Part shown: one piece after another, positions 3,590 through 63,903 of the stretch | Numbering within the stretch: position 1 is the stretch's first letter | Layout: each line of letters starts with the position of its first letter | Assembly (NCBI GenBank): GCA_007375645.1 | Contig: VMER01000001.1 | Location: 337,576 to 401,575, forward strand | DNA length: 64,000 nucleotides | Source of the DNA: Parcubacteria group bacterium LiPW_15 | GTDB taxonomy: Bacteria; Patescibacteriota; Minisyncoccia; UBA6257; 2-01-FULL-56-20 | Reading direction: 5' to 3' | Notes under the pieces: model-generated | What the model was told of the DNA's origin: nothing | Seen by the model: only the letters and a program-made list of their open reading frames with translations | The model's database searches: none | Position numbers and translations under genes: made by a program

Positions 3590-5023
3590 TCAAACCCTTA
3601 GGGCCTCGCGGAAATCCTTTACCGCTTGCAAAGGATTATCGAAATACCTGTCTATAAGTCTGGCGGCTAACTCCGGCGTGGTCTTCAATTTCTCGGTTAG
3701 CGCATAAACCGCCGGAAATAATCTCGTGTTTAAAACATTGTCCAAAATCCGCTTCCTAAGCCCCCGCTCCAACTCCTCGCCGATCATCTCTACAGTCGTC
3801 GCCCCAGGCATGGCCAAGTGTGCCAAATTTTCCATAAGCGCATTCATGCGGGCAAAAAGGACCAGCTGATACGGAAGCGGCATCTTGTGCTTTATGAATA
3901 TTTTTATAAACCCGACGAACCAGAAACCAAGACCGGCAAATTCTGTTTGCTCCAGATAATCTTCAACATCTTTCCGGATAAGACCCTTAAAACGCGCGTC
4001 TGCCCGACACATGCGAACTGCCACCTTGATAGATTCTTCCACATTTCCGGCATACACCGCCAAGATAAAATCTTTTGTCTCTTCACAATCCCTGCCTTCA
4101 AAATGCCCCAAAAGACCGTAGTCCAAAAGCGCCAAGCGCCCGTTCGGCAACAAAAGCACATTCGCCGGATGCGGATCACCATGGAAGTAAAAATCCGATT
4201 CGTGCATCCAATCGTAAAGGACCGCATTCATAAATCGTTTCATAGAAGAAACTGCGTCGTACTCCGGATTGTTCTTAATAAGTTCCAGCTTGTTCATCGG
4301 CACGCCATCTATAAAGTCCATAGTGATGACATTATCCGACAAAAATTCCTCATGAATATCCGGAATTACGATCGCGTGGGTATAAGGATTTTTCCCATTT
4401 TGCATCCGCCGCACATATTTTTTCACCGTTCTTAGATTTTCCGCCTCTCTTCTAAAATCGGTCTCCTGGAACATCCAATCCTCTATCTGAGAAACAACTA
4501 CATCCATTCGAATCTGTCGAAGACTGCGAGAAAATATTTTTGTGAGCCTAAGAAGCGATTTGATTATTGCGAGATCCGATTTTATGGTCCGTTGAATATT
4601 GGGCCGGCGGATCTTCACTGCCACATCCTCGCCCGTCGTGAGCTTCGCCCTATAAACCTGAGCGATAGAAGCCGAGGCGATGGGTTGGGTATCAAACTCT
4701 TTAAACAACTCCTCGGGATATTTTTTAAAATCAGCTAAAAATATCGCCCGCACAGTTTCTTCGGAGATGGGCGGAACCTTGTCTAGAAGGCCGGCCAACT
4801 CCGCAGAATCTTCTTTGGAAATTAACTCGTAGCGGGTACTGAGCAATTGTCCGAACTTTATAAACACCGGCCCCAATTCCTCGCAGGCCAGGCGGATGCG
4901 CCTCCCTAAAATAGCTTTGCGGTTGCCGGTGAATTTGTACCAAACAAAATATTTGCCGCAAACCAAAAGCACCCTTGGAATGCGCAAAGTTGTTCCTTGT
5001 TCTCTAGCGACGCGGTTTGTCAT
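3590..5023 (-). CDS. ABC1/UbiB-family (ADCK-like) atypical protein kinase
   Basis: 477 aa; FIKFGQLLSTR, ASIAQVYRA, FHGDPHPANVLL motifs typical of the ABC1 kinase family. Confidence 0.85.
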   Translation of the reverse strand: MTNRVAREQGTTLRIPRVLLVCGKYFVWYKFTGNRKAILGRRIRLACEELGPVFIKFGQLLSTRYELISKEDSAELAGLLDKVPPISEETVRAIFLADFKKYPEELFKEFDTQPIASASIAQVYRAKLTTGEDVAVKIRRPNIQRTIKSDLAIIKSLLRLTKIFSRSLRQIRMDVVVSQIEDWMFQETDFRREAENLRTVKKYVRRMQNGKNPYTHAIVIPDIHEEFLSDNVITMDFIDGVPMNKLELIKNNPEYDAVSSMKRFMNAVLYDWMHESDFYFHGDPHPANVLLLPNGRLALLDYGLLGHFEGRDCEETKDFILAVYAGNVEESIKVAVRMCRADARFKGLIRKDVEDYLEQTEFAGLGFWFVGFIKIFIKHKMPLPYQLVLFARMNALMENLAHLAMPGATTVEMIGEELERGLRKRILDNVLNTRLFPAVYALTEKLKTTPELAARLIDRYFDNPLQAVKDFREALRV

Positions 5024-5038
5024 ATCTCGACTGTTTTG

Positions 5039-5377
5039 TTATTTACAGTCTGCGCAAAAATAATATTTTTTACCAGCCTTGTTCTCGCCGACCACCCCAA
5101 CCGTGCCCTTGGAAATTGTTTTCCCGCAAGAAGCGCATTCCATATCCTGAGCGAACTGGGCCCGGTGGAAACTCACAATATCTTCGAATTTATTTTTTTT
5201 ATCCCCCGCGCCGAATATCTCCCGCGAAAGATCATGGATTATCTCCACGCTGTCCTCTATCGCCTTGCGAGCCAAATTGGAAACGCTCTCTCGGTTCTCC
5301 TTGGCTTTCTGCTTCATCTTTTCGTAGGTTTTCCGGGAAACCCGAAAATTAATGATGTAGTCCTTGTTTTCGTCCAT
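5039..5377 (-). CDS. small ribbon-helix-helix (CopG-like) protein with C-terminal CxxC...CxxC zinc ribbon
   Basis: 112 aa; N-terminus INFRVSRKTYEKMKQKAKE..SVSNLARKAIED (RHH-like); C-terminus CASCGK...FCADCK. Confidence 0.6.
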   Translation of the reverse strand: MDENKDYIINFRVSRKTYEKMKQKAKENRESVSNLARKAIEDSVEIIHDLSREIFGAGDKKNKFEDIVSFHRAQFAQDMECASCGKTISKGTVGVVGENKAGKKYYFCADCK

Positions 5378-6279: not shown

Positions 6280-7010
6280 GTTTTTGCCAGCAAAACCTGG
6301 GTGGCTTCCATGGGTTGCAATTTCTCCGGCTTGCCAACCATAAATTCGTCAAAAGCTTTCCAAACGCCTTCGCATTGCCCGTAATCATGGGAAAGAATTC
6401 TGCCGCCGGGCAGCATCCTCGGATAGAAAAATTCCAGGGCTTTTTTTGTAACGCTATAAAGATCCACGTCCAAATGGACAAAAGAAAATTTCAGATCTTT
6501 AACAGCCTCCCCTGTTTCAGGGAACAATCCCGGATATATTTGAATAGCCGGATACCTAGAAAGCCTGGCTCTAACTTCTTTTTCGCCAGCGAGAAACATT
6601 CCTTTCTTGAATCTTCCGTCCCGCCCACTAACCTCATCCGGCAACCCTTCGAAAGTGTCAAAAAGATGGAGCGGGGTTTTATTTTTCACCTCGCAAATCA
6701 CTTTTGCAGAGGCCCCGCGGAATACACCGACTTCGGCAAATGCGCCGCCGTGATCGGCCATAATGCGAGCCTGCTCCCAAATGTTAAGAAGTTCGCCCGG
6801 GCTGAACAACACCGGCTTTCTGCCGGTGAAAAAACTGCCGATCATTGACCCCTCTTCCTCGCGATAAATTTCGGATACAAGATCAAACGCCTTCTTTTCA
6901 AGCGGATTGCGTTTGTAATATTTTAGTTTACCAAGCTCAACGCGCGACATGATGCGCTTTAAAAACATTCCCCAGCGAGTATTTGAAATTTGATTATCGA
7001 TTCCCGGCAT
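6276..7010 (-). CDS. class I SAM-dependent O-methyltransferase, TylF/MycF-like family
   Basis: 244 aa; GAFAEVGVFRGASAKVI, LHLFDTFEGLP, FVHLDVDLY...LPGGRILSHDY; 4-nt ATGA overlap with the downstream ORF. Confidence 0.8.
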   Translation of the reverse strand: MPGIDNQISNTRWGMFLKRIMSRVELGKLKYYKRNPLEKKAFDLVSEIYREEEGSMIGSFFTGRKPVLFSPGELLNIWEQARIMADHGGAFAEVGVFRGASAKVICEVKNKTPLHLFDTFEGLPDEVSGRDGRFKKGMFLAGEKEVRARLSRYPAIQIYPGLFPETGEAVKDLKFSFVHLDVDLYSVTKKALEFFYPRMLPGGRILSHDYGQCEGVWKAFDEFMVGKPEKLQPMEATQVLLAKT

Positions 7011-7017
7011 TATTGTT

Positions 7018-7052
7018 ATTTATAAGCAAAGAACACTGTAGCGACCGCAAAA
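7018..7052 (-). promoter_or_regulatory. putative promoter with extended -10 (TGcTTATAAAT) ending about 7 nt before the methyltransferase ATG (leaderless transcript suspected)
   Basis: minus-strand read TTTTGC-17nt-TGCTTATAAAT-aacaata-ATG. Confidence 0.35.
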
Positions 7053-7138
7053 ATCAGAGCAACAGAGAAATTTCATATCTTCGTCTAAAAATTATCTACT
7101 ATCCGTTGGCAGACGTAAAGATAAAAAATGGCCCGCCG

Positions 7139-7170
7139 CCTACATGGCATTGGGCCCGAACGAAAGAACG
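7139..7170 (-). terminator. intrinsic terminator after small CDS 7179..7475
   Basis: GGCCC...GGGCC hairpin followed by ATTTTTTAT on the minus strand. Confidence 0.45.
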
Positions 7171-7178
7171 TGCTACCG

Positions 7179-7475
7179 CTACCGCTTTTGCTTGTCCGAG
7201 ACCGGCGCCGGCTGAGAAACGCCAGTGGGATCCAGCCTCCTCAGAAGCTCAGCCTCCAGAATGCCCCTTAGCACCCCCTGCGGGGCATGCTGACACGCCG
7301 AAGCGAAATCAGCTACCAACTCCCGACCGGACATAGTTTCCGGAACTGCAAAATCACGACCCATATACCCTCCAATCTTTTCACATCCGTCCTTTGGATG
7401 TGACCGAAATATAACAACCTCGGAAATGTCCGTCAAACAAAAATCCCGCCTATCCATAGATGGGCGGGATTCCAT
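7179..7475 (-). CDS. hypothetical small protein (GC-rich 3' half)
   Basis: 98 aa ORF; RBS AAGGGG 8 nt upstream; own terminator. Confidence 0.35.
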   Translation of the reverse strand: MESRPSMDRRDFCLTDISEVVIFRSHPKDGCEKIGGYMGRDFAVPETMSGRELVADFASACQHAPQGVLRGILEAELLRRLDPTGVSQPAPVSDKQKR

Positions 7476-7500
7476 TGTTTATCCCCTTGATCGCTACTTT

Positions 7501-9606
7501 TTACTTTCTCTTTCCGGAAACTATCTCAGCCTCAATATTTTTCGGAACGGGCTCGAAATGGTCGAATTCCATCGTGAACGAACCTCTCCCCTGAGACATG
7601 GAACGGATCTCCGTCGCGTAACCGAACATTTCGGAAAGCGGGATCTTCGCGTCCACGATCTTGATGGTTCCCCTGTCGCTAAGTTGTTCGATCTTTCCGC
7701 GCTTCGCGTTTACGTTGCCGGTCACTTCTCCCATGAAATCCATCGGCACAAGAATCTGTACTTTCATGATCGGTTCCAAGATAACGGCCTTCGCGCGCTT
7801 AGTAGCTTCCTGGAGCGCCATGGAAGCGGCCATTTTGAAAGCGGCTTCGGAAGAGTCCACTTCGTGGTAAGAACCGTCGAAGAGGGTGACTTCCACGTCT
7901 ATCATCGGATAGTGAGCGACAACTCCGCGGTCCAATGCTTCTTTAACTCCTTTTTCGATAGGCGAAATAAATTCCTGAGGAATAACGCCTCCTTTGATGG
8001 CGTTGATAAATTCAAAACCTTTGCCGCGCTCAAGCGGTTTGACCGAAAGCCAACAGTGTCCGTACTGACCGCGTCCGCCGGACTGGCGGATATATTTTCC
8101 TTCCGCCTCCGCTTCTCCCAAAATTGTTTCCTTGTAGGCAACCTGCGGACGGCCGACATTCGCATCCACGCCGAATTCACGCTTCATGCGGTCCACGATA
8201 ATTTCCAAGTGTAATTCACCCATACCGGAGATGATGGTCTCTCCCGTGTCGGGATCTCCATGAACTTTAAAGGTCGGATCCTCTTCGGCCAAGCGGCGCA
8301 AAGCATTACCCATTTTTTCCTGGTCAACTTTGGTCTTCGGCTCAATTCTGATTCCGATGACCGGTTCCGGAAAGCTGATGGATTCCAAAACTACCTGATT
8401 CTCGGGATCAGTGATGGTGTCCCCGGTCGTGGTGTCTTTAAGGCCGACGATAGCAGCGATTTCTCCGGCATAAACTTCGTCCACTTCTTCGCGGTCATTG
8501 GCGTGCATACGAACAATACGTCCGACACGTTCCTGAACGCCCTTGGTGGTGTTCATAATATAAGAACCTTTTTTCAAAACTCCGGCATAAACCCTGAAAT
8601 ACGCGAGAGAACCGATGTAAGGATCGGCGGCAATCTTGAAAGCCAAACCGGTAAACGGTTCAGCGTCGGATGCCGCTCTAAATATTTCTTCCCCAGTCGA
8701 AACGTTATGCCCCTTAGTCGGCGGAATATCCAGCGGAGACGGGAGGTAATCCACAACCGCGTCCAACATAAACTGAACGCCTTTATTTTTTAAAGCTGTT
8801 CCGCAAAGAACCGGAACAATTTTGTTCTCAATCGTGGCCTTCCTCAACGCGTGCTTCAGCTCAGCCAAGGTGACTTCTTTGCCTTCCAAATATTTAGCCA
8901 TCAAGGCATCTTCCGTATCTACAATTTTCTCAACGGCATCGTGGCGATATTTTTCTACCTCGGACTTCATATTTTCCGGAATCGGAATCTCGATAACTTT
9001 CTCGCCGCGTTCACCCTGGAACTCGTAAGCTTTGTTAGCCAAGAGATCCACAAGACCGCTCACATCGGACTCGGAACCTATCGGAAGCTGTATGGGAACA
9101 GCCGTCTTAGTCAGGCGTTCGTGTATGGAAGCGAGGCTCTTCAAAAAACTCGCGCCCATTCTGTCGAGCTTGTTGATAAAGCAAACGCGCGGAACTTTAT
9201 AGTCGTCGGCGTAATGCCAGTTGGTTTCGGATTGCGGTTCCACGCCGGAAACTCCGTCGAAGACCACAACCGCGCCGTCCAAAACGCGCAAAGACCGCTT
9301 TACCTCAACGGTAAAGTCGATGTGGCCGGGAGTGTCGATAAGGTTGATGCGATGTTCAAAATTTTTGTCTCCTTTCGCGTAGGTCGGGGTCCAGAAAGCG
9401 GTCGTCGCAGCGGAAGTAATAGTGATGCCGCGCTCTCTCTCCTGTTCCATCCAGTCCATAACCGTGGTTCCCTCGTGCACTTCTCCGATCTTGTGGGAAA
9501 CGCCGGTATAAAAAAGCACGCGCTCGGAAACGGTCGTCTTTCCGGCATCAATATGCGCGATAATCCCAATATTCCTGACTTTTTCGATAGGATATTGTCG
9601 GGGCAT
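7501..9606 (-). CDS. fusA: elongation factor G
   Basis: 701 aa; [17 protein letters not shown] and EF-G domain IV/V signatures. Confidence 0.97.
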
Positions 9607-32160: not shown

Positions 32161-32302
32161 TGAGAAAATTATATCACTAAACGAATTATCCGCGCAGCAC
32201 ACCAAAAACACCTGCCGCGAAGAGCAAATGTTTTGGTGTTCTGCGATTGGAACCTTAATCTAGCATTCTTAGTCCCCCCTTTTTTTCTCCCGTGGCGGTT
32301 CG

Positions 32303-33490
32303 TTAATGCTGAATCCAATTCCCATCGTCATCGTAATTCTGTGATCCACTTATCCCGCAGGCATTCCACACTAGATCAAGTGCGGGTTTTAGAGTTGTGT
32401 GGACAGGTTCATCGTACGTCCCAAAAGTAACTTCGGGGCAATAAAGATTTTTCTCACGTATCGGATGAACATCAGATGTAGATTTAAAAGTGGTGCTAGA
32501 AAAAGACATCCCTTTCACGTCAGTTAGGGTAATAAACACGAATATCGGAGGATTGATCTCCAATGAATGTAGGGCATTGAGATAATTCTTGGTGTAGTTA
32601 ATGATTTGTTCCTCAATAACATAAATTGGAATTACGCTCTCTCTTTCCGTCTTGCTGCGCGCCAAGATAGATGTTTCGACTGCCTCGATCGCGCCGTTTC
32701 GAAATAATTGAACGTAAGATCGCGCAATTTCTTTTTGGCCCGCCCCGGTATGTGCAATTACTCCGGCTACATTGATTTGCGGACGGAACCAAGCATCTGT
32801 AAACATGGGCCGCAAATTATTTAAATCGCTGTAAAGTTGAAAAAGCTTTTCTGCGGGTATGTTGAGAGTTGTAGAGAATGATTCGAGGGGGACAAGGTGT
32901 AAAATAATCTTGCTTCCTCCTACAACAGTGATTGGCGCATTGTTGGCTTCTATTTCCATTGTCCGTTCCATCCGAAAATCTTTTATACGTCTTGAAACAG
33001 TTTCGGATAAGGTAAACTGTTCGCGCAATTCGGAAACATCGAGTGAATACTTACCAGCGGCTCCTCGAGCATAAAACTTGTCGTGACCTGCAAAAATAAC
33101 CCTATGAGGTTTAATCCAGCTTTGCTTTACGCGGACGATAACCAGATATTTGGAATTATCAATTGGGATTGATCTAATGGAGTACTGAATTCTTGGATCC
33201 AGACCATTCTGGATCATTCCATCCATTCGCCTTACTTCAGCGTCGACATCAGGAATTTCAACACCCAGTATTTCCACTGGCAATCCGGCATCTTCCTTGA
33301 TGCCATAAATTAAGTCTCCTCCGATGGTGTTCGAAAAGGATGACACATCAGCAAGAAACTCTTTTTTTGAGGCATCATTTCCTCCTGGCAATTCTTGTTT
33401 ATATTCAATTGACTTACCCTCGGCAACGGAGTTGGAGATTAGTGAGTTAATATCTGCTATCTCAATGTCCTCAAGTTTTTTAGCAATCAT
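32303..33490 (-). CDS. Schlafen/AlbA_2-like putative nucleic-acid-binding protein (divergent recG-C-terminal-like family)
   Basis: 395 aa; N-terminal EGKSIEYKQEL..ADVSSFSNTIGGDLIYGI matches the AlbA_2 signature; region is low GC (about 40%). Confidence 0.7.
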   Translation of the reverse strand: MIAKKLEDIEIADINSLISNSVAEGKSIEYKQELPGGNDASKKEFLADVSSFSNTIGGDLIYGIKEDAGLPVEILGVEIPDVDAEVRRMDGMIQNGLDPRIQYSIRSIPIDNSKYLVIVRVKQSWIKPHRVIFAGHDKFYARGAAGKYSLDVSELREQFTLSETVSRRIKDFRMERTMEIEANNAPITVVGGSKIILHLVPLESFSTTLNIPAEKLFQLYSDLNNLRPMFTDAWFRPQINVAGVIAHTGAGQKEIARSYVQLFRNGAIEAVETSILARSKTERESVIPIYVIEEQIINYTKNYLNALHSLEINPPIFVFITLTDVKGMSFSSTTFKSTSDVHPIREKNLYCPEVTFGTYDEPVHTTLKPALDLVWNACGISGSQNYDDDGNWIQH

Positions 33491-33613
33491 ATATAAATCT
33501 TATTCCGAATAGGACGGTTTTTAAATACTTCGCTCAGATACCTCACGCCTAAAACCACACTATGTCAACGCGTCTCGAGCACGTTCAACCTGGCGACAGA
33601 ACTGGGAACGTTT

Positions 33614-34232
33614 TCAATGTGAAATCAGTTTTTTAATCTCTTCAAAAAATTGTTCATTATTCTTGAAAATTAACGATTTCATACCAAGATTTTCTTGTTT
33701 GTCATCTATAAAAACGCTGTCTTCTGGTTTCACTTTGAGTTTTTCGAGAATTGACATAAAACACTTCTTATCTGGTTTTTTTAGTCCGTCGTCGCACGAT
33801 ATTTCCAGCGCATCAAAATCTCTATAATATTTCTTAGGTATAAGAACATTTTTGGATAAATGAAATTGGGTTGAAAGAACGCCCAATACATACCCTTTAA
33901 CCTTTAGATCTAAAATAAATTTATATAATATTTCGTTTTCAATTACATTCTTTGCATAAAGATTCTCGAATAGCTCCTCAACTTTTTTCCCCGGAACACT
34001 CAGCACTTGTGAGTAAAGCATTAACGTTTCCTCTTTCGATATTTCTCCGATAGAAGATTTTCGATATATATCAATAGTGTCTTTAAAAATCTCATCTGGG
34101 GATTTGTTAACGCCCTCTAATAAAAAACAAGCTTCTTTATATGAGGTGAGAAGGTTTTTTTTCTTCTCTTTTCTTTATATCTTTTGGAAATAAAAGAACG
34201 CCGCCAACATCAAATATCAAAGCTTTTATCAT
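33614..34232 (-). pseudogene. HAD-superfamily hydrolase disrupted by a frameshift in an A8 run (plus-strand T8 at 34155..34162)
   Basis: N-terminal 31 aa ORF MIKALIFDVGGVLL (motif I) ends in a stop; the C-terminal ORF carries motifs III/IV (K..DD); A7 would restore about 206 aa. Confidence 0.6.
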
Positions 34233-34343
34233 TGCTGGCCTCCTCGGTCGCGGATATTTGAAAATCCTTACCCCACAAGCGTCCCAGAGGATTCCCTAAG
34301 TTTATCAAAACGACGCTCCTCGGACGGGAAATCCTGCTAGGAA

Positions 34344-35192: not shown

Positions 35193-35260
35193 AAAACTAT
35201 TCTACCAGAAACCCAAAGCTAGTTTTAACGCTCCTCGGACGCCTAGAGCTCTGCTCAAGG

Positions 35261-35335
35261 TGGCTGCGGGACCTGGATTCGAACCAAGATACTCGCCTTC
35301 AGAGGGCGATGTCCTACCATTAGACGATCCCGCAA
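35261..35335 (-). tRNA. tRNA-Gln (anticodon CTG), CCA encoded
   Basis: reverse complement folds as TGCGGGA..; anticodon loop CTCTGAA; T-loop TTCGAAT. Confidence 0.8.
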
Positions 35336-35361
35336 TTTGTTTGCGCAGCCTGCTACCATTA

Positions 35362-35381
35362 CCTGCCTGCCGGCAGGCAGG
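35362..35381. repeat. perfect 20 bp palindrome CCTGCCTGCCGGCAGGCAGG (copy 1 of 3)
   Basis: exact match to copies at 51029 and 58962. Confidence 0.9.
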
Positions 35382-35444
35382 GATGACCCGGCAATTGCGT
35401 ATTAACGCACATCAATATTACCCAAATAAGCGTTTTTTGGCAAC

Positions 35445-35472
35445 AAAAAAGGCCTCCGCTTTCGCAGAGGCC
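35445..35472 (-). terminator. intrinsic terminator after CDS 35480..35860
   Basis: ggcctc-cgctttcgc-agaggcc hairpin followed by ttttttgttg on the minus strand. Confidence 0.65.
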
Positions 35473-35479
35473 GTTCGCC

Positions 35480-35860
35480 CTAATAGCTACCGAAAAGGCT
35501 CGCTCGCCCCGCGACCTCGAGAGTCTTGGTGATCTCCTTTGCCGTCTTGGCATCCCGCTTCCGGACGACCTCGAACATCTTCTCGAGGACTTCCCGAGGA
35601 CCCAGAATGTGGATGTCTTTCCGCTCCACCGGATAGAAGGGCTGGGACTTGCCCGATGGCCAGTAGCCCTTCTCCGGCCAGACGAGATACAGCGCCTTGT
35701 CGGGCTCGTCGTATTCTTCGACGACACCGATGACATTCCATACGTCCACCCAGACGACGTCGCCGCCTTTGAGCTCGACCCATACGTCCGCCTGGACGAC
35801 TTCGCCGCCCCTGAGCTCGGCCTCCACGACTTCCTGTTTTTCTTTGATCTCTTCCACGAT
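35480..35860 (-). CDS. hypothetical GC-rich protein with an internal tandem repeat (..EVVQADVWVEL / KGGDVVWVDVW..), probable GTG start
   Basis: about 125 aa; GGAGG RBS; imperfect roughly 39 nt tandem DNA repeat. Confidence 0.45.
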   Translation of the reverse strand: MVEEIKEKQEVVEAELRGGEVVQADVWVELKGGDVVWVDVWNVIGVVEEYDEPDKALYLVWPEKGYWPSGKSQPFYPVERKDIHILGPREVLEKMFEVVRKRDAKTAKEITKTLEVAGRASLFGSY

Positions 35861-35922
35861 GCACCTCCTAGTTCTCGCCGGATTATAACAAAAAAACAAC
35901 CTCCGTCAAAGCTGTTTTTTTG

Positions 35923-59487: not shown

Positions 59488-59527
59488 AGGCTTATTTTAA
59501 CTCAATCCGAGGCCGCTCGCGAGGCGA

Positions 59528-59983
59528 TTAGAAAGTCAGACCAAAAGCGCGGCTGGAGTTTCCGGAAGTGCCCAAGGATTTAAAGGTGGTGCTTGATGCG
59601 CTTTCCCCCGGAGTACAATTTGCCATTGGGGCGCCATTCATATCGAAACAATACTGAGTTGTTATCGCTTTTGCGTTGTTCCCGAGCGTCAGAGTTTTCC
59701 CGTTCCAGGTCATCTGATTCGGAGCCGGACAAGGAGTTTTTCCCGCATCGTTCGCGCAAAACCAGTTATAAAGCGTCCATTCAATACCCGCATCCGCTGC
59801 GTAAATTGCTTTGCCGGAGTTGGCAAGGTCGGTAGCCTGGCGTATTTGATAGAGCATTAAAAGCCCGGCAATAGTCGTCGCACCTAATATCGCGCCACCC
59901 AAAGCCATGACCGTTAAGATCATCACCTGCCCTGACCTGTGCTGAGTTTTATCGAAACAGCGAATTGAATCTCTCTTAGTCAC
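59528..59983 (-). CDS. hypothetical membrane-anchored protein (possible pilin/pseudopilin-like)
   Basis: 151 aa; N-terminal hydrophobic helix; two Cys pairs; no canonical prepilin G-F-x-x-x-E. Confidence 0.4.
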   Translation of the reverse strand: MTKRDSIRCFDKTQHRSGQVMILTVMALGGAILGATTIAGLLMLYQIRQATDLANSGKAIYAADAGIEWTLYNWFCANDAGKTPCPAPNQMTWNGKTLTLGNNAKAITTQYCFDMNGAPMANCTPGESASSTTFKSLGTSGNSSRAFGLTF

Positions 59984-60068
59984 AAGTTAATTATACCTCA
60001 TTGCCAGAGAACAGAAACAAAGACGGGCCTTCATGCCCGCCTTTGTTAAGATTCGCACTTGTTTTCCC

Positions 60069-63000
60069 CTACTGCTTACACGTCGGATCGATCGGATTAC
60101 ATTCGATTATAGAGGTTACGGTCACACCAATGTTCGCGATGGTCTTAACCCCGCCCCTCAGACACTCCAGGATATATTGTCCGGTCTTTGTGGGCGTTAC
60201 TTTCTGAATAGCGCCGCAAGAACTCGCAGCCGGACAAGAGGACGGAACCGAACCCAGGGAAACTTTGGTGCCGCTTGTTGTATCGTAAAGCACACATCCG
60301 GTTACGCCGGAATCGCAACTCCAGGTGAGAGTCGATGAGCTTCCCTTGGAAATGATCTTCGGATTGGCTGACATTGTGCAGGAAGTCGGAGCGGTACAGC
60401 CCTGACCGATAGTCGTGCATTGGTTCTCCCCGGGACCACCGACTATTAAACATGCATTGTTCTGACACTCCAAATGTATTACTCCAGCGCCGCCGCAACC
60501 TGGATCGCCCGTACAAAGATTGGTTCCCGCGCCGGCAACGTTAACGCAAGATTGTGTAGCCGGATCGCAAGCTGCATGGAATGGGTCGCCTCCTCCCACG
60601 CCTCCACAATCCGCGCTTGCACTGCATCTGTCCGGACCTCCACCGGTCACGTTTGCACAAGAATTATTTACGCATTCTTTATGCGTTCCCCCGCCCGGAG
60701 GAGTGGAGCAGCCACTACAATCGGTAACTCCGCAGCCGGGAATAGATGTACAAGCACCCGCGACACAGCCGTTATGAGGACTCGTCTGGCCCGCCGGACA
60801 AGAAGCCGGTACACAGGCGTTGCCGTTTTTAACATATCCGCTTCCGCATCTGGCTTCGCACTTCACCTGAGGGGTACAAGCGCTTACAAGCGTGGTCGGC
60901 GTATCGACAGTGAGTCCGCTTGTGTCTCCGGAACAATACAGGGAATTCGCGGGAAGGCTGCCGGTACAAACATATTCCGCCGATACGCACAATCCTCCTT
61001 CATTGACGCAACCATCTTCATTTGAGCCGCCTCCATCTACTAATACGCAAGAATTATTGGCGCAGGCAAGGTGGCTTCCTCCGCTACAGGATTCACCCAC
61101 GCTACCGCAACCGTCTTGATTCGCGCCACCGCCGTCCAGCATGGCACAGGAATTACCCACGCACCCAAGATGATATCCCCCGCTACAGGACTGATCTACG
61201 CCGGTGCAGCCGTTCTCATTTGCGCCACCACCCGGCAGCACGGCGCAGGAATTGCCGACACACGCAAGATGATTTCCTCCCCCGCCGCAAACCTGACCGG
61301 CGTTATTGCATCCATCCAAATTGCCCACGGCGCCGCGAACGCGCACGCAAGAACTGCCCAAACATTCCAAATGACTGCTCCCGCTCGAACAGGAAAGAAT
61401 AAAATCCGCGGTTCCGCCGGGACTAATCGTTTGCGAAGCGGGACCCGAAAGAACACATGGCTCATACCCGCTTATCGTATATTGGCCATCTGTCGCCTTG
61501 TAGCTTACAAAATAATCCGAGCCCGAACTTCCGCTTTGATTGTCTCCCGGCACAACGTTGTTAACGGTCAGAGCCGTGGCGTTATCCGCCGGAGTCGGAC
61601 CGCTCATTGTCCAATTCGCAGGATATCCGTTTTTGTATGTAACTCGAACCGAACCTCGACAGTCTTTAATAGCAACCAATGCGTTGGATTGACCCCAGCC
61701 GGAAAAACTCGCCCTGGTATCAACTTCCTGGCGATAACCCTTGACCGGAATACCGGATCCATCATCAGCGCAGGAATGCGGAGTTTGTCTCGAACCATTA
61801 CCGGCTGCATCGGTCCCCATCCACTCCGGGTTAAGATGGCTGAAAGAACGCGCAATAGTCGGATAAAGATCATATTCCTCGGCAATTCTGGAAAGCTCTG
61901 CCGTGCTGTTCGGCTTACCGCCGGTCACACTAGCCACCGCATTTTCGTCTTGCCAACCAAAAGCGTTGGGAACAATAGTAAGTTGCACGTTATGCGAGAC
62001 CGCAGAAACGGTAACTGGCGTGAATGCTACTAATCCTTGGAACCCTCCGCTAACCTGTGCAGTCCCGGGAGCAATGCCGGTTAAGGTGGCGCTATCATCG
62101 GTTTCTGAAGTCCTTTTGATAACACTAAAGTTGTTGGAATCGATGTTCGCCCCGGCACCCACCGGCATACTCACAGATCCGTTCGTATACCAGGCATGAT
62201 AAACCAAACTTCCACCGACTCCAACAGAGCTATTGGTCGGCGTAATCGTTAGACTCCCCGTTCCACAATTATGAGACGGCTCACAACTCGAAGGTTCGCT
62301 GCCGGGAACACTTATACAAGAAACTCCATCCAGAGAGCAGGCATAGTGCTGATCGCCCGGAGGAAGAGTGACTGTCACCACATCCTGCGCGGAACCGGCA
62401 AAATCTCCATACGGATCTCTGCAAGTTATCCCAAAGGTAGTGGTCCGATCGATCGCAGGATAGCTGGCGCTTCCGCTCGCACCGGCTCCCGAACCCGAAA
62501 GAGGCGCGGATTGGCCGGAATTCCAACCAGCGGTGGCCGGAGAAGAAAACTTTGTGCACTCGTAATCGGCCCCGTTCAATCTTGGATCGTTACTCGTAAC
62601 CCCATACGTAATATTTCCGGAAACTCCGGTTGTCCCCGCACCTGGCCTGGCCTCAACGCTTATCGTCGGAGCCATTCCCGCGACATCAACCACTGTCGAA
62701 CAAACTCCTGAGCCGGCCACATTCGAACAGGTCATGGTATAAGTCGTCGGAAGCTGGGTAGAAAAAGAAACACTCCCGCCGGAAGGAGGATTAACGGTGC
62801 CCGGAGAATTGCCGCAAACTCCACTTCCATAAGGTCCAGAGCAGGAAGCCGCGATCGAACAGCTCGTTGGATTGCCATTGCCAGTCCAAGATAGAGTTCC
62901 GGAAACAGAAGTGTTGCTCGGACTTAGCACTCCCGAACTCGGATTTGCGGAAATAGAACAGGAAGCGGTCGGGGGTTGGAGTACATTTACGGTTGCCCTA

Positions 63001-63455
63001 ACGGTCGGACTGTCGCCGTTTGCATTACTGCAGTACATATCCACCCAATGAGTGCCGGGAGAAGCCCAAGACCACGGCGAAGAACCAGGAGTACTCAGCG
63101 TATACGGGAAAGATCCGTCCGGAGTTCCGTGGCAAACCGTGGCTCCCCTCGATGCGCTCCAAGACACGAGCACGTTTTCACCGGCATTAACCGTCCCCGG
63201 ATCAATGGTCAGCGAGGTTACCGGCAAACAAGAAGGCGAGGCCGCGCAGCTTGCTTGATCGGCATAGAGGCCACTGGGCGTAGGCCAAGTATCCGAATAA
63301 GTACAGGCATAATCGTCGATCGCGGCACACTTCCAACCATCGTATGGGCCTTCCCCCGGTGCGACAGCCGCATTGGCGCTAGCCGCAAAAAAAAGTGTAA
63401 GTGCGGCAAAGGCGAAAAGGATAATATTTATTTTTTTCATTTTATTTTTGGGCAT
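60069..63455 (-). CDS. giant secreted Cys/Gly/Ser/Thr-rich surface protein with tandem roughly 30 aa Cys repeats
   Basis: 1128 aa; N-terminal signal peptide; repeats of C(V/A)GNSC(A/V)xLxGGGAN(E/Q)xGC..SCSGGxHL. Confidence 0.8.
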   Translation of the reverse strand: MPKNKMKKINIILFAFAALTLFFAASANAAVAPGEGPYDGWKCAAIDDYACTYSDTWPTPSGLYADQASCAASPSCLPVTSLTIDPGTVNAGENVLVSWSASRGATVCHGTPDGSFPYTLSTPGSSPWSWASPGTHWVDMYCSNANGDSPTVRATVNVLQPPTASCSISANPSSGVLSPSNTSVSGTLSWTGNGNPTSCSIAASCSGPYGSGVCGNSPGTVNPPSGGSVSFSTQLPTTYTMTCSNVAGSGVCSTVVDVAGMAPTISVEARPGAGTTGVSGNITYGVTSNDPRLNGADYECTKFSSPATAGWNSGQSAPLSGSGAGASGSASYPAIDRTTTFGITCRDPYGDFAGSAQDVVTVTLPPGDQHYACSLDGVSCISVPGSEPSSCEPSHNCGTGSLTITPTNSSVGVGGSLVYHAWYTNGSVSMPVGAGANIDSNNFSVIKRTSETDDSATLTGIAPGTAQVSGGFQGLVAFTPVTVSAVSHNVQLTIVPNAFGWQDENAVASVTGGKPNSTAELSRIAEEYDLYPTIARSFSHLNPEWMGTDAAGNGSRQTPHSCADDGSGIPVKGYRQEVDTRASFSGWGQSNALVAIKDCRGSVRVTYKNGYPANWTMSGPTPADNATALTVNNVVPGDNQSGSSGSDYFVSYKATDGQYTISGYEPCVLSGPASQTISPGGTADFILSCSSGSSHLECLGSSCVRVRGAVGNLDGCNNAGQVCGGGGNHLACVGNSCAVLPGGGANENGCTGVDQSCSGGYHLGCVGNSCAMLDGGGANQDGCGSVGESCSGGSHLACANNSCVLVDGGGSNEDGCVNEGGLCVSAEYVCTGSLPANSLYCSGDTSGLTVDTPTTLVSACTPQVKCEARCGSGYVKNGNACVPASCPAGQTSPHNGCVAGACTSIPGCGVTDCSGCSTPPGGGTHKECVNNSCANVTGGGPDRCSASADCGGVGGGDPFHAACDPATQSCVNVAGAGTNLCTGDPGCGGAGVIHLECQNNACLIVGGPGENQCTTIGQGCTAPTSCTMSANPKIISKGSSSTLTWSCDSGVTGCVLYDTTSGTKVSLGSVPSSCPAASSCGAIQKVTPTKTGQYILECLRGGVKTIANIGVTVTSIIECNPIDPTCKQ
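60960..61390 (-). repeat. tandem coding repeats (about 90 nt unit, 4 or more copies) inside the giant protein gene
   Basis: repeated GCG..GNSCA..GGGANxxGC protein motif; extent approximate. Confidence 0.5.
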
Positions 63456-63903
63456 AAGCGATTATGACCTTTGTCCCAAATCCGATATTTTCAAAAGTTA
63501 TGTTTAATTCCTGCGCGCCCTTGCTCGCATAGTAAAAAGTGTTCATGGCCAAGGGATCCGCCTCATGAGCCACCATCCACCCATTCTCTCTTAAGTATGC
63601 CCCGTAATCGGCGACCATCTGAATCAAAGGACGCCGGGAAGTAAACGTGGTTGCCGGCTGGTTAACCTTCTGGGCCCTGTAATCCAAGGCGTAGCTATCC
63701 AGGATCCTCGCCTGCGGATCCAAGATCAGAGCCCGATCAAAACCGGCGACAACCTCCCCCTCCGGCGAGGTTTTAATCGAATATGGCATGCGGGAAGAGT
63801 AGAGCAGATACCCGCCCACAATAGCGGCGACGGCGACCAACCCTATAATTATTTTGACGAGGGTCGACTTGCTTTTTTCTAAATGTTCTTTTTGCCCGAT
63901 CAT
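63442..63903 (-). CDS. hypothetical membrane-anchored protein
   Basis: 153 aa; N-terminal TM; overlaps the giant protein gene start by 14 nt. Confidence 0.5.
   Translation of the reverse strand: MIGQKEHLEKSKSTLVKIIIGLVAVAAIVGGYLLYSSRMPYSIKTSPEGEVVAGFDRALILDPQARILDSYALDYRAQKVNQPATTFTSRRPLIQMVADYGAYLRENGWMVAHEADPLAMNTFYYASKGAQELNITFENIGFGTKVIIAYAQK

Follow-up and report, generated by a model that had tools for sequence, protein, structure and literature searches.

A 64,000-nucleotide stretch of contig VMER01000001.1 (hereafter, the window) from the metagenome-assembled genome (MAG) of Parcubacteria group bacterium LiPW_15, a member of the candidate phyla radiation (CPR)/Patescibacteria, carries a minus-strand gene (the Slfn gene) whose 395-amino-acid (aa) product joins an N-terminal Schlafen/AlbA_2 nuclease domain to a large C-terminal module. 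NCBI lists a sequence identical to this protein as "MAG: ATPase AAA [Parcubacteria group bacterium LiPW_15]", on a contig of 481,644 bp. Here, we report an analysis of this gene, its family, and the AT-rich segment in which it lies. We propose, with a probability of roughly 65%, that it encodes a single-protein anti-phage or abortive-infection system of the prokaryotic Schlafen (pSlfn) type.

Locus and Schlafen domain

The open reading frame (ORF) was found exactly as given in a preliminary description made from the sequence, and its parts were placed as follows.

32303..33490, minus strand: pSlfn protein gene, complete coding sequence, 395 aa (ORF list; ATG start).
33041..33490, minus strand: residues 1 to 150, N-terminal helix and Schlafen/AlbA_2 nuclease domain.
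33398..33421, minus strand: codons E24-G-K-S-I-E29-Y-K31, the Ex4(E/D)xK catalytic motif (alignment).
32306..33040, minus strand: residues 151 to 395, linker helix and alpha+beta C-terminal module.
33491..33613, minus strand: intergenic region of 123 nucleotides (nt) 5' of the Slfn gene (ORF coordinates), presumably holding its own promoter and ribosome-binding site.

The signature E-GKSIEYK, from which an AlbA_2/Schlafen domain had been proposed, lies at residues 24 to 31, and Pfam PF04326 (SLFN_AlbA_2) matched residues 24 to 148 (E = 1.1e-13; 52 bits, cutoff 25.3) over 115 of its 118 profile positions, that is, as a full-length domain (>100 aa). The Ex4(E/D)xK motif, hallmark of the 5,930 catalogued prokaryotic Schlafens (PMC13056530), was kept in 51/51 aligned family members. 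A PDB sequence search with the single 395-aa protein gave no match; a family profile run against solved structures placed the CRISPR-associated Schlafen CbCash first (PDB 9ylu; E = 3.9e-6; Nat Commun 2026, PMC13462974), followed by SLFN13, SLFN14, SLFN12, and SLFN5, and the domain has the three-dimensional Schlafen fold. E24, E29, and K31 align column for column with CbCash E17, D22, and K24 and with the ESASIEFK motif of rat SLFN13. The three CbCash residues ligate Mg2+ at the scissile phosphate, and tRNA cleavage is lost when they are mutated (PMC13462974); the catalytic role of the Schlafen motif residues is established both there and in PMC13056530. E66, which hardly varies in the family, falls opposite the acidic pair in the GVDD sequence of SLFN13 and, judged from the profile alignment, may be a third carboxylate. 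The N-terminal domain is predicted to be an Mg2+-dependent endoribonuclease with the triad E24/E29/K31.

No GHKL, HATPase_c_4, AAA, or helix-turn-helix (HTH) domain was detectable (Pfam at E <= 1; NCBIfam), so the names "ATPase AAA" and "ATP-binding protein" are unsupported and represent annotation carry-over. Other database names, "helix-turn-helix domain-containing protein" and "putative DNA-binding domain", likewise imply a non-catalytic nucleic-acid-binding or regulatory protein resembling the AlbA_2-HATPase_c_4-wHTH proteins. Such a role is scarcely probable here: besides the missing HATPase_c_4, HTH, and ATPase domains, the E-(E/D)-K triad does not vary within the family, which would be unexpected for a mere binder, and the C-terminal module is interchangeable with enzymatic killer domains (see below).

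Portable C-terminal module

Neither Pfam, NCBIfam, PHROG, nor PADLOC placed a family on residues ~150 to 395, and nothing matched beyond the AlbA_2 region. The C-terminal half is thus unassigned, as had been stated, in terms of database families, yet it is a conserved module present in more than 4,000 sequence clusters. The whole protein had 928 homologues, the best 120 of which were all full length (~385 to 395 aa; 42 to 59% identity; aligned over 99 to 100% of the query). Searched alone against 1.84 billion representatives, residues 150 to 395 matched 4,370 clusters (counted at 50% identity), 2,781 of them at E < 1e-10, nearly all of proteins of ~390 aa with the module at ~150 to 390. Mean pairwise identity was 58% in the nuclease domain versus 42% in the C-terminal part.

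An AlphaFold2 model of the module alone (predicted local distance difference test, 90.9; predicted template modeling score, 0.89) showed a helix of 30 residues and, after it, an alpha+beta domain. The helix, which acts as the linker, has a conserved F172/R176 "FRxxR" pattern, and the invariant residues of the module include H198, P201, G243, Q261, R264, E269, E293, P315, W375, N376, and G379. Several of the polar ones are kept across phyla, even in the PNP fusions described below, which hints at a ligand or catalytic site over an arms-race protein interface. No close solved fold was found for the module; weak fold neighbors include AdoMetDC and Bet v1/SRPBCC. The protein therefore has the architecture of a pSlfn fused to an accessory domain, here a conserved module of about 235 to 245 aa.

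The module also occurs behind other enzymatic domains. In P0207 (661 aa), it follows a Pkinase domain (E = 5e-18; PADLOC PD-T4-6, E = 4e-25), and in P0250 (508 aa), it is joined to PNP_UDP_1 (E = 1e-26; PADLOC CBASS "PN-superfamily effector", E = 6e-16), a fusion shared by P0270 (80% identical, full length) and P0274. The C-terminal half of the PNP fusion is 70 to 72% identical to Slfn-fused proteins and its PNP half 60 to 72% identical to PNP domains carried on TIR, SEFIR, AAA_16/STAND, NACHT, and FGE-sulfatase modules; the effectors have therefore been exchanged recently. A plasmid search with the module alone returned TIR-annotated genes of the Bacillus cereus group and restriction-endonuclease-annotated genes of haloarchaea. 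WP_012477848 (B. cereus AH820) combines TIR_2 (E = 9e-30) with the module (hhalign 99.9%, E = 1.6e-33) and belongs to a stable 388-aa subfamily of such proteins, and WP_204749912 (Haloterrigena) combines Mrr_cat with a divergent copy (98.6%, E = 1.3e-15). With the C-terminal domain of the TIR fusion as query, only close B. cereus-group relatives and no further effector types were recovered, a result bounded by the word-index limit of the search. The fusions lie next to SMEK, HEPN, and XerS genes, SIR2 and integrase genes, or AbiTii and SIR2_2 genes. On pAH820_272 (B. cereus AH820; L109 4491-6765), a SMEK-domain gene comes immediately after the TIR-module gene, with XerS and a gene for a HEPN-domain protein next in line.

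A module that stays constant while five enzymatic killer domains alternate on it, in defense-island contexts, is most simply read as the sensing or regulatory half of single-protein immune systems. We tentatively suggest, at somewhat less than even odds, that the module is an undescribed, effector-agnostic immune sensor, widespread in bacteria and archaea, that couples one infection cue to lineage-dependent effectors. The outputs may then be tRNA cleavage (Schlafen), NAD+ or nucleotide depletion (TIR and PNP), phosphorylation (kinase), and DNA cleavage (Mrr).

Related systems

The closest parallels are RorSlfn5 and EcoSlfn7, prokaryotic Schlafen defense proteins (Perez Taboada et al., Nat Microbiol 2026, PMC13056530). 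As here, each is encoded by one gene and has one Schlafen/AlbA_2 domain with Ex4(E/D)xK and an accessory domain thought to be the infection sensor; their genes are likewise patchily and horizontally spread, some of them outside defense islands, and in pSlfn5, too, the nuclease is better conserved than the accessory domain. The differences lie in the host, here a CPR bacterium, and in the accessory domain, which is immunoglobulin-like (Ig-like) in pSlfn5 and DUF262 in pSlfn7, whereas here an alpha+beta module without a Pfam model follows a long helix. CbCash, the closest solved relative of the nuclease domain, is also a single-lobe Schlafen followed by a regulatory domain; Cash proteins, however, carry a Csx15 Rossmann-like sensor of cyclic tetra-adenylate (cA4) and belong to type III CRISPR loci, and here neither was found: the C-terminal module gave no Rossmann-like matches, and the window held no CRISPR array or spaced repeats, the neighbors being housekeeping genes. 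The module showed no C-terminal Ig-like beta-sandwich, no GHKL/HATPase_c_4 or winged HTH domain follows AlbA_2 as in the HisKinase/HTH fusion class of pSlfns, and Pfam DUF5929, which defines another class, had no match at E <= 1. With the pSlfn domain, motif, fold, and fusion present and the features of pSlfn5, Cash, HATPase/HTH, and DUF5929 absent, the protein is placed as a new, uncharacterized pSlfn member. Among the classes of the pSlfn catalogue, it may correspond to the "TBP-like" one (1.5% of pSlfns; accessory domain in the ECOD TBP-like group) or to the "unannotated" one.

The mammalian tRNases SLFN11, SLFN13, and SLFN14 have two AlbA_2-like lobes per chain together with linker and helicase domains; here, there is one lobe, and a one-lobe protein would need oligomerization to build a tRNA clamp. 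A Schlafen of Enterococcus lactis with an unassigned C terminus, which gives broad abortive-infection defense and is encoded beside a small serine recombinase (PLoS Biol 2026, PMC13552941), resembles the present family, compared by description alone, in its domain-less C terminus and in a recombinase adjacency also seen for a Legionella longbeachae plasmid orthologue. One module held constant while its partner varies is also the pattern of Shedu, Avs/NLR-like, and CBASS effectors, and the PNP, TIR, kinase, and Mrr partners found here are standard immune effectors (as in the PADLOC PD-T4-6 and CBASS PN-effector matches); in contrast to those systems, what stays constant here is the putative sensor and what varies is the effector, with no STAND/NTPase module and no signaling nucleotide synthase.

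Distribution and genomic contexts

Pattern detection recovered 399 relatives among 185,579 species genomes. Their spread lacks phylogenetic coherence, and they are 38 to 46% identical to the query whatever the phylum. Bacterial carriers include Acidobacteriota, Planctomycetota, Chloroflexota, many Patescibacteria lineages, Nitrospirota, Bacteroidota, Cyanobacteria, Bacillota, and Pseudomonadota, among others; archaeal carriers include Thermoplasmata, Halobacteriota, Bathyarchaeia, and methanogens, and most members come from uncultured soil and groundwater lineages. Orthologues from cultured strains are nevertheless available, in Terracidiphilus gabretensis S55, Granulicella sp. dw_53, Nostoc sp. 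FACHB-280, and Thermodesulfatator autotrophicus S606 and on plasmids of B. cereus NW6 (WP_267999270.1), L. longbeachae F1157CHC (WP_085663073.1), and P. ginsengisoli (WP_052400546.1). The family was present on 17 plasmids and 11 predicted viral contigs; no member was found in isolated phage genomes, and no relative was found on Enterococcus plasmids in the plasmid search.

No conserved partner gene was found in 78 reference-genome loci. The commonest neighbor cluster, a DNA methyltransferase, occurred in 11 of them at varying offsets, and 135 immediate neighbors fell into 105 Pfam families, each in <=4 loci. Some members are solitary between housekeeping genes, as in the window; others lie in a type IV secretion system (T4SS) conjugative element with a divergent XRE gene, beside PIN, Y1-transposase, or PD-(D/E)XK genes, in cassettes flanked by an integrase or recombinase, or two genes from an Mrr endonuclease. 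On the conjugative plasmid pLLO-F1157CHC of L. longbeachae (L107 6421-8122), the family member begins within a small serine recombinase gene, overlapping its last 8 nt; this adjacency is a defense-discovery marker in PMC13552941. Known defense genes lie within ±10 kb of 69.6% of pSlfns, and 30% of pSlfns lie outside islands (PMC13056530). The intact nuclease motif, the portable module, and the missing partner gene together support the suggestion, made in the preliminary description, of a possible stand-alone defense gene.

One MAG (L009) carried two Schlafen-type genes 1.6 kb apart (3784-5376 and 7001-8254), encoding an AlbA_2-HATPase_c_4-Fic-like_C protein and a family member, followed by a gene for an uncharacterized 240-aa protein and one for a serine recombinase; RhuM is also close by. 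P0002 (391 aa; 59% identical to the query) occurs as an identical protein on at least 19 contigs, with an Mrr-type endonuclease cassette downstream on one contig and a bestrophin-like gene on another (L092 versus L094); the differing neighbors hint at very recent mobility.

The protein might also be a housekeeping or stress-response RNase, acting in tRNA/rRNA turnover or quality control with a C-terminal domain that binds a cellular metabolite: many copies are flanked by MiaB, KsgA, TsaE/D, RarA, or AMMECR1, the invariant polar residues suggest a small-ligand site, and small-molecule binders are among the weak fold neighbors of the module. We regard this as very improbable, given the sporadic spread, the presence of the gene on plasmids and integrative and conjugative elements, the replacement of the effector by TIR, PNP, kinase, or Mrr in defense islands, and the lack of the gene at this locus in the nearest relative of this genome. 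The protein could instead be a toxin serving mobile-element addiction or competition between elements rather than host immunity, a regulated RNase with which plasmids, integrative and conjugative elements, and prophages would secure their own upkeep or keep out rivals, the copy here being the remnant of such an element. The relatives in or beside the T4SS element, in integrase or recombinase cassettes, on plasmids, and on predicted viral contigs favor this, as does the location of the Slfn gene, in an AT-rich patch and next to a decayed gene; against it, no antitoxin-like small gene is conserved adjacently, and many copies stand alone between housekeeping genes. We hold it to be unlikely, and it differs from a defense role in the beneficiary, not in the mechanism, defense genes commonly riding on mobile elements.

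Composition, flanking features, and probable acquisition

The segment comprising the Slfn gene and the adjacent HAD gene had been described as having a GC content of about 35 to 40%. Over its 2,038 bp, GC content was 39.3% versus 48.5% for the window (z = -3.3 against all 2,038-bp windows), which agrees for the segment as a whole, but the deficit is unevenly spread. The segment is among the 10 lowest-GC of 1,240 windows (the minimum starts at 32451), and by tetranucleotide usage it is the most atypical 2-kb stretch in the window (z = 3.4). The Slfn gene itself deviates only moderately (GC, 41.9%; z = -2.0; GC at third codon positions [GC3], 39% against a gene mean of 53%; standard deviation, 7.7). 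Most of the deficit comes from the HAD remnant (33614-34232), with a GC content of 30.9% (GC1, 45; GC2, 18; GC3, 29). Neither the host nor the neighboring Slfn gene comes near so low a value, which suggests a separate lower-GC donor rather than coacquisition. Next in tetranucleotide deviation within the window comes 59500-63500 (z, about 3.0 to 3.2), which holds a 1,128-aa minus-strand ORF (60069-63455).

Further features lie upstream of the Slfn gene.

33614..34232, minus strand: HAD-IA-type hydrolase gene, TIGR02247-like, with one frameshift (three-frame translation).
34155..34162, minus strand: A8 homopolymer (T8 on the plus strand), site of the HAD frame change (sequence reading).
35261..35334, minus strand: tRNA-Gln(CTG) (ARAGORN and Rfam).

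The HAD frame opens at an ATG at 34232 (minus strand), contains motif I MIKALIFDVGGVLL, and reads into a stop just past A8, while the next frame continues to 33614 and has a Pfam Hydrolase/HAD_2 match on its C-terminal ORF. No contiguous HAD-IA reading frame with motifs I to IV exists, the frame being broken at A8. Joined, the two frames yield 206 aa that align with TIGR02247 along their whole length (residues 2-202 against 2-207 of 211; E = 5e-21); the frameshift that had been noted beside the Slfn gene is therefore a single indel. We infer either a 1-nt insertion or an assembly error in the homopolymer, the sequence coming from one assembly.

This frameshifted neighbor, together with the AT-rich patch and the lack of a recognizable promoter (no significant sigma-70-like site was found in 33491..33613, and promoter and terminator scans were at chance level), would fit a Slfn gene that is a functionless passenger decaying like the HAD gene. 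That is quite unlikely, however: the ORF is full length, it starts like all homologues (MI.K.L), and every family-invariant residue is retained.

The co-directional string reads tRNA-Gln, methyltransferase (MTase), disrupted HAD gene, Slfn, EamA, and GIY-YIG, then pyruvate kinase and PepF, with FtsX, FtsE, and PrfB on the opposite flank. A 15-nt inverted repeat (32193-32245; 93% complementary; 23-nt loop) lies between the Slfn stop and the EamA GTG start, overlapping the latter, and might separate the two genes as a terminator or attenuator. The MTase is a CMAS/Methyltransf_11-type S-adenosylmethionine (SAM) methyltransferase (Pfam). A restriction-modification (R-M)-like pairing of MTase and Slfn was considered and rejected, as the MTase is of the small-molecule type and is not conserved beside family members. 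tRNA-Gln was the sole match in an Rfam scan of the region. Directly upstream of it lies a GC-rich patch (35359-35899; 55 to 60% versus 48% for the window) with long overlapping ORFs on both strands, one of which (35480-35899, minus strand; 139 aa) is without a Pfam match. Between 22000 and 45000, one housekeeping-looking gene matched the MADS component mad3 (PADLOC, E = 8e-31) and others matched mad8 and mad2; these probably reflect generic ATPase/MTase similarity, Pfam assigning FtsE/ABC, DnaX/AAA, and SAM-MTase types.

Composition and phyletic pattern indicate that the Slfn gene was horizontally acquired, as previously suspected; the transfer event itself is undocumented. No second copy of the 3' end of tRNA-Gln was found in the window, and this tRNA is a possible island anchor. 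A 14-nt exact direct repeat, CGTCCGAGGAGCGT (minus strand), occurs only twice in the window, at 34313-34326 (~80 nt upstream of the HAD start) and at 35228-35241 (~36 nt upstream of the MTase start and 20 nt downstream of tRNA-Gln). A shared promoter or leader sequence, or a scar left by serial insertion beside the tRNA, could explain the repeat; as an attachment (att) site of the Slfn/HAD segment, the pair was rejected, because it brackets the MTase gene and not Slfn. A weaker look-alike, AGGCGTGAGG, lies upstream of the Slfn gene at ~33545.

An exact-sequence look-up of the MTase, used as an empty-site test, gave no match, and no clean empty site was found among Pyk relatives from metagenomes. 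The nearest metagenome relative (Pyk 80% identical) keeps GIY-YIG-pyk; synteny is otherwise lost, and a NERD-family gene and a racemase stand where EamA, Slfn, HAD, and MTase lie here. The NERD (nuclease-related domain) gene in the EamA/Slfn position suggests that the slot upstream of GIY-YIG-pyk is variable and takes nuclease-type cargo. In that relative, the NERD gene (L112 2366-3435) abuts a small GIY-YIG gene, with stop and start overlapping.

Interpretation and significance

The gene would have arrived in this Parcubacteria genome as a solitary, horizontally transferred cassette. In the mechanism that we propose by homology with RorSlfn5 and CbCash, the C-terminal module (residues ~151 to 395) would hold the nuclease inactive until it recognizes an infection-associated cue; the protein would then be activated, probably by altering its oligomeric state, as those two proteins do. 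The activated E24/E29/K31 site would most likely cut tRNA loops, halting translation as abortive infection.

Several observations weigh against a defense function. CPR bacteria are small-genome episymbionts. PADLOC v2 holds no model for the family and gave, within ±10 kb of the Slfn gene, generic ABC/AAA-ATPase and SAM-MTase matches where Pfam identifies FtsE, DnaX, and similar proteins, so that neither PADLOC nor Pfam points to a convincing defense gene in that range; nor does an integrase or att site mark an island in the window. Immediate neighbors in the 78 genomes are mostly housekeeping genes, with few R-M/MTase, PIN, or HNH genes, and hence give no strong defense-island signal, in line with the 30% of pSlfns reported outside islands. 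The conservation of polar residues across phyla means that the role of the module could differ from phage-protein sensing. The defense role of the family is a putative one, ascribed by comparison with other proteins. The alternatives nevertheless account less well than defense for the conserved catalytic triad in combination with the effector-swap pattern.

Anti-phage tRNase activity of prokaryotic Schlafens was demonstrated only in 2026, and only their Ig-like and Csx15 accessory domains have a known trigger. The present family is large and easily recognized, is systematically misannotated as "ATP-binding protein", and is missing from PADLOC v2, and what had passed as an unassigned half is a large, portable, effector-agnostic module. 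Its presence on five effector classes is a direct experimental handle, as one trigger could be tested across effectors, and cultivable carriers exist in B. cereus group plasmids (Slfn and TIR versions), Burkholderia, Ralstonia, Legionella, and haloarchaea; the TIR/SMEK/XerS/HEPN cluster of pAH820_272, in a cultured strain, is a good entry point. If the module is such a sensor, the invariant polar residues (H198, Q261, E269, and W375-N376) would mark the binding site of a conserved ligand. The Slfn gene is one of few candidate immune genes in this CPR MAG, and if the proposed function is correct, single-gene immunity would operate even in ultra-small-genome CPR episymbionts.

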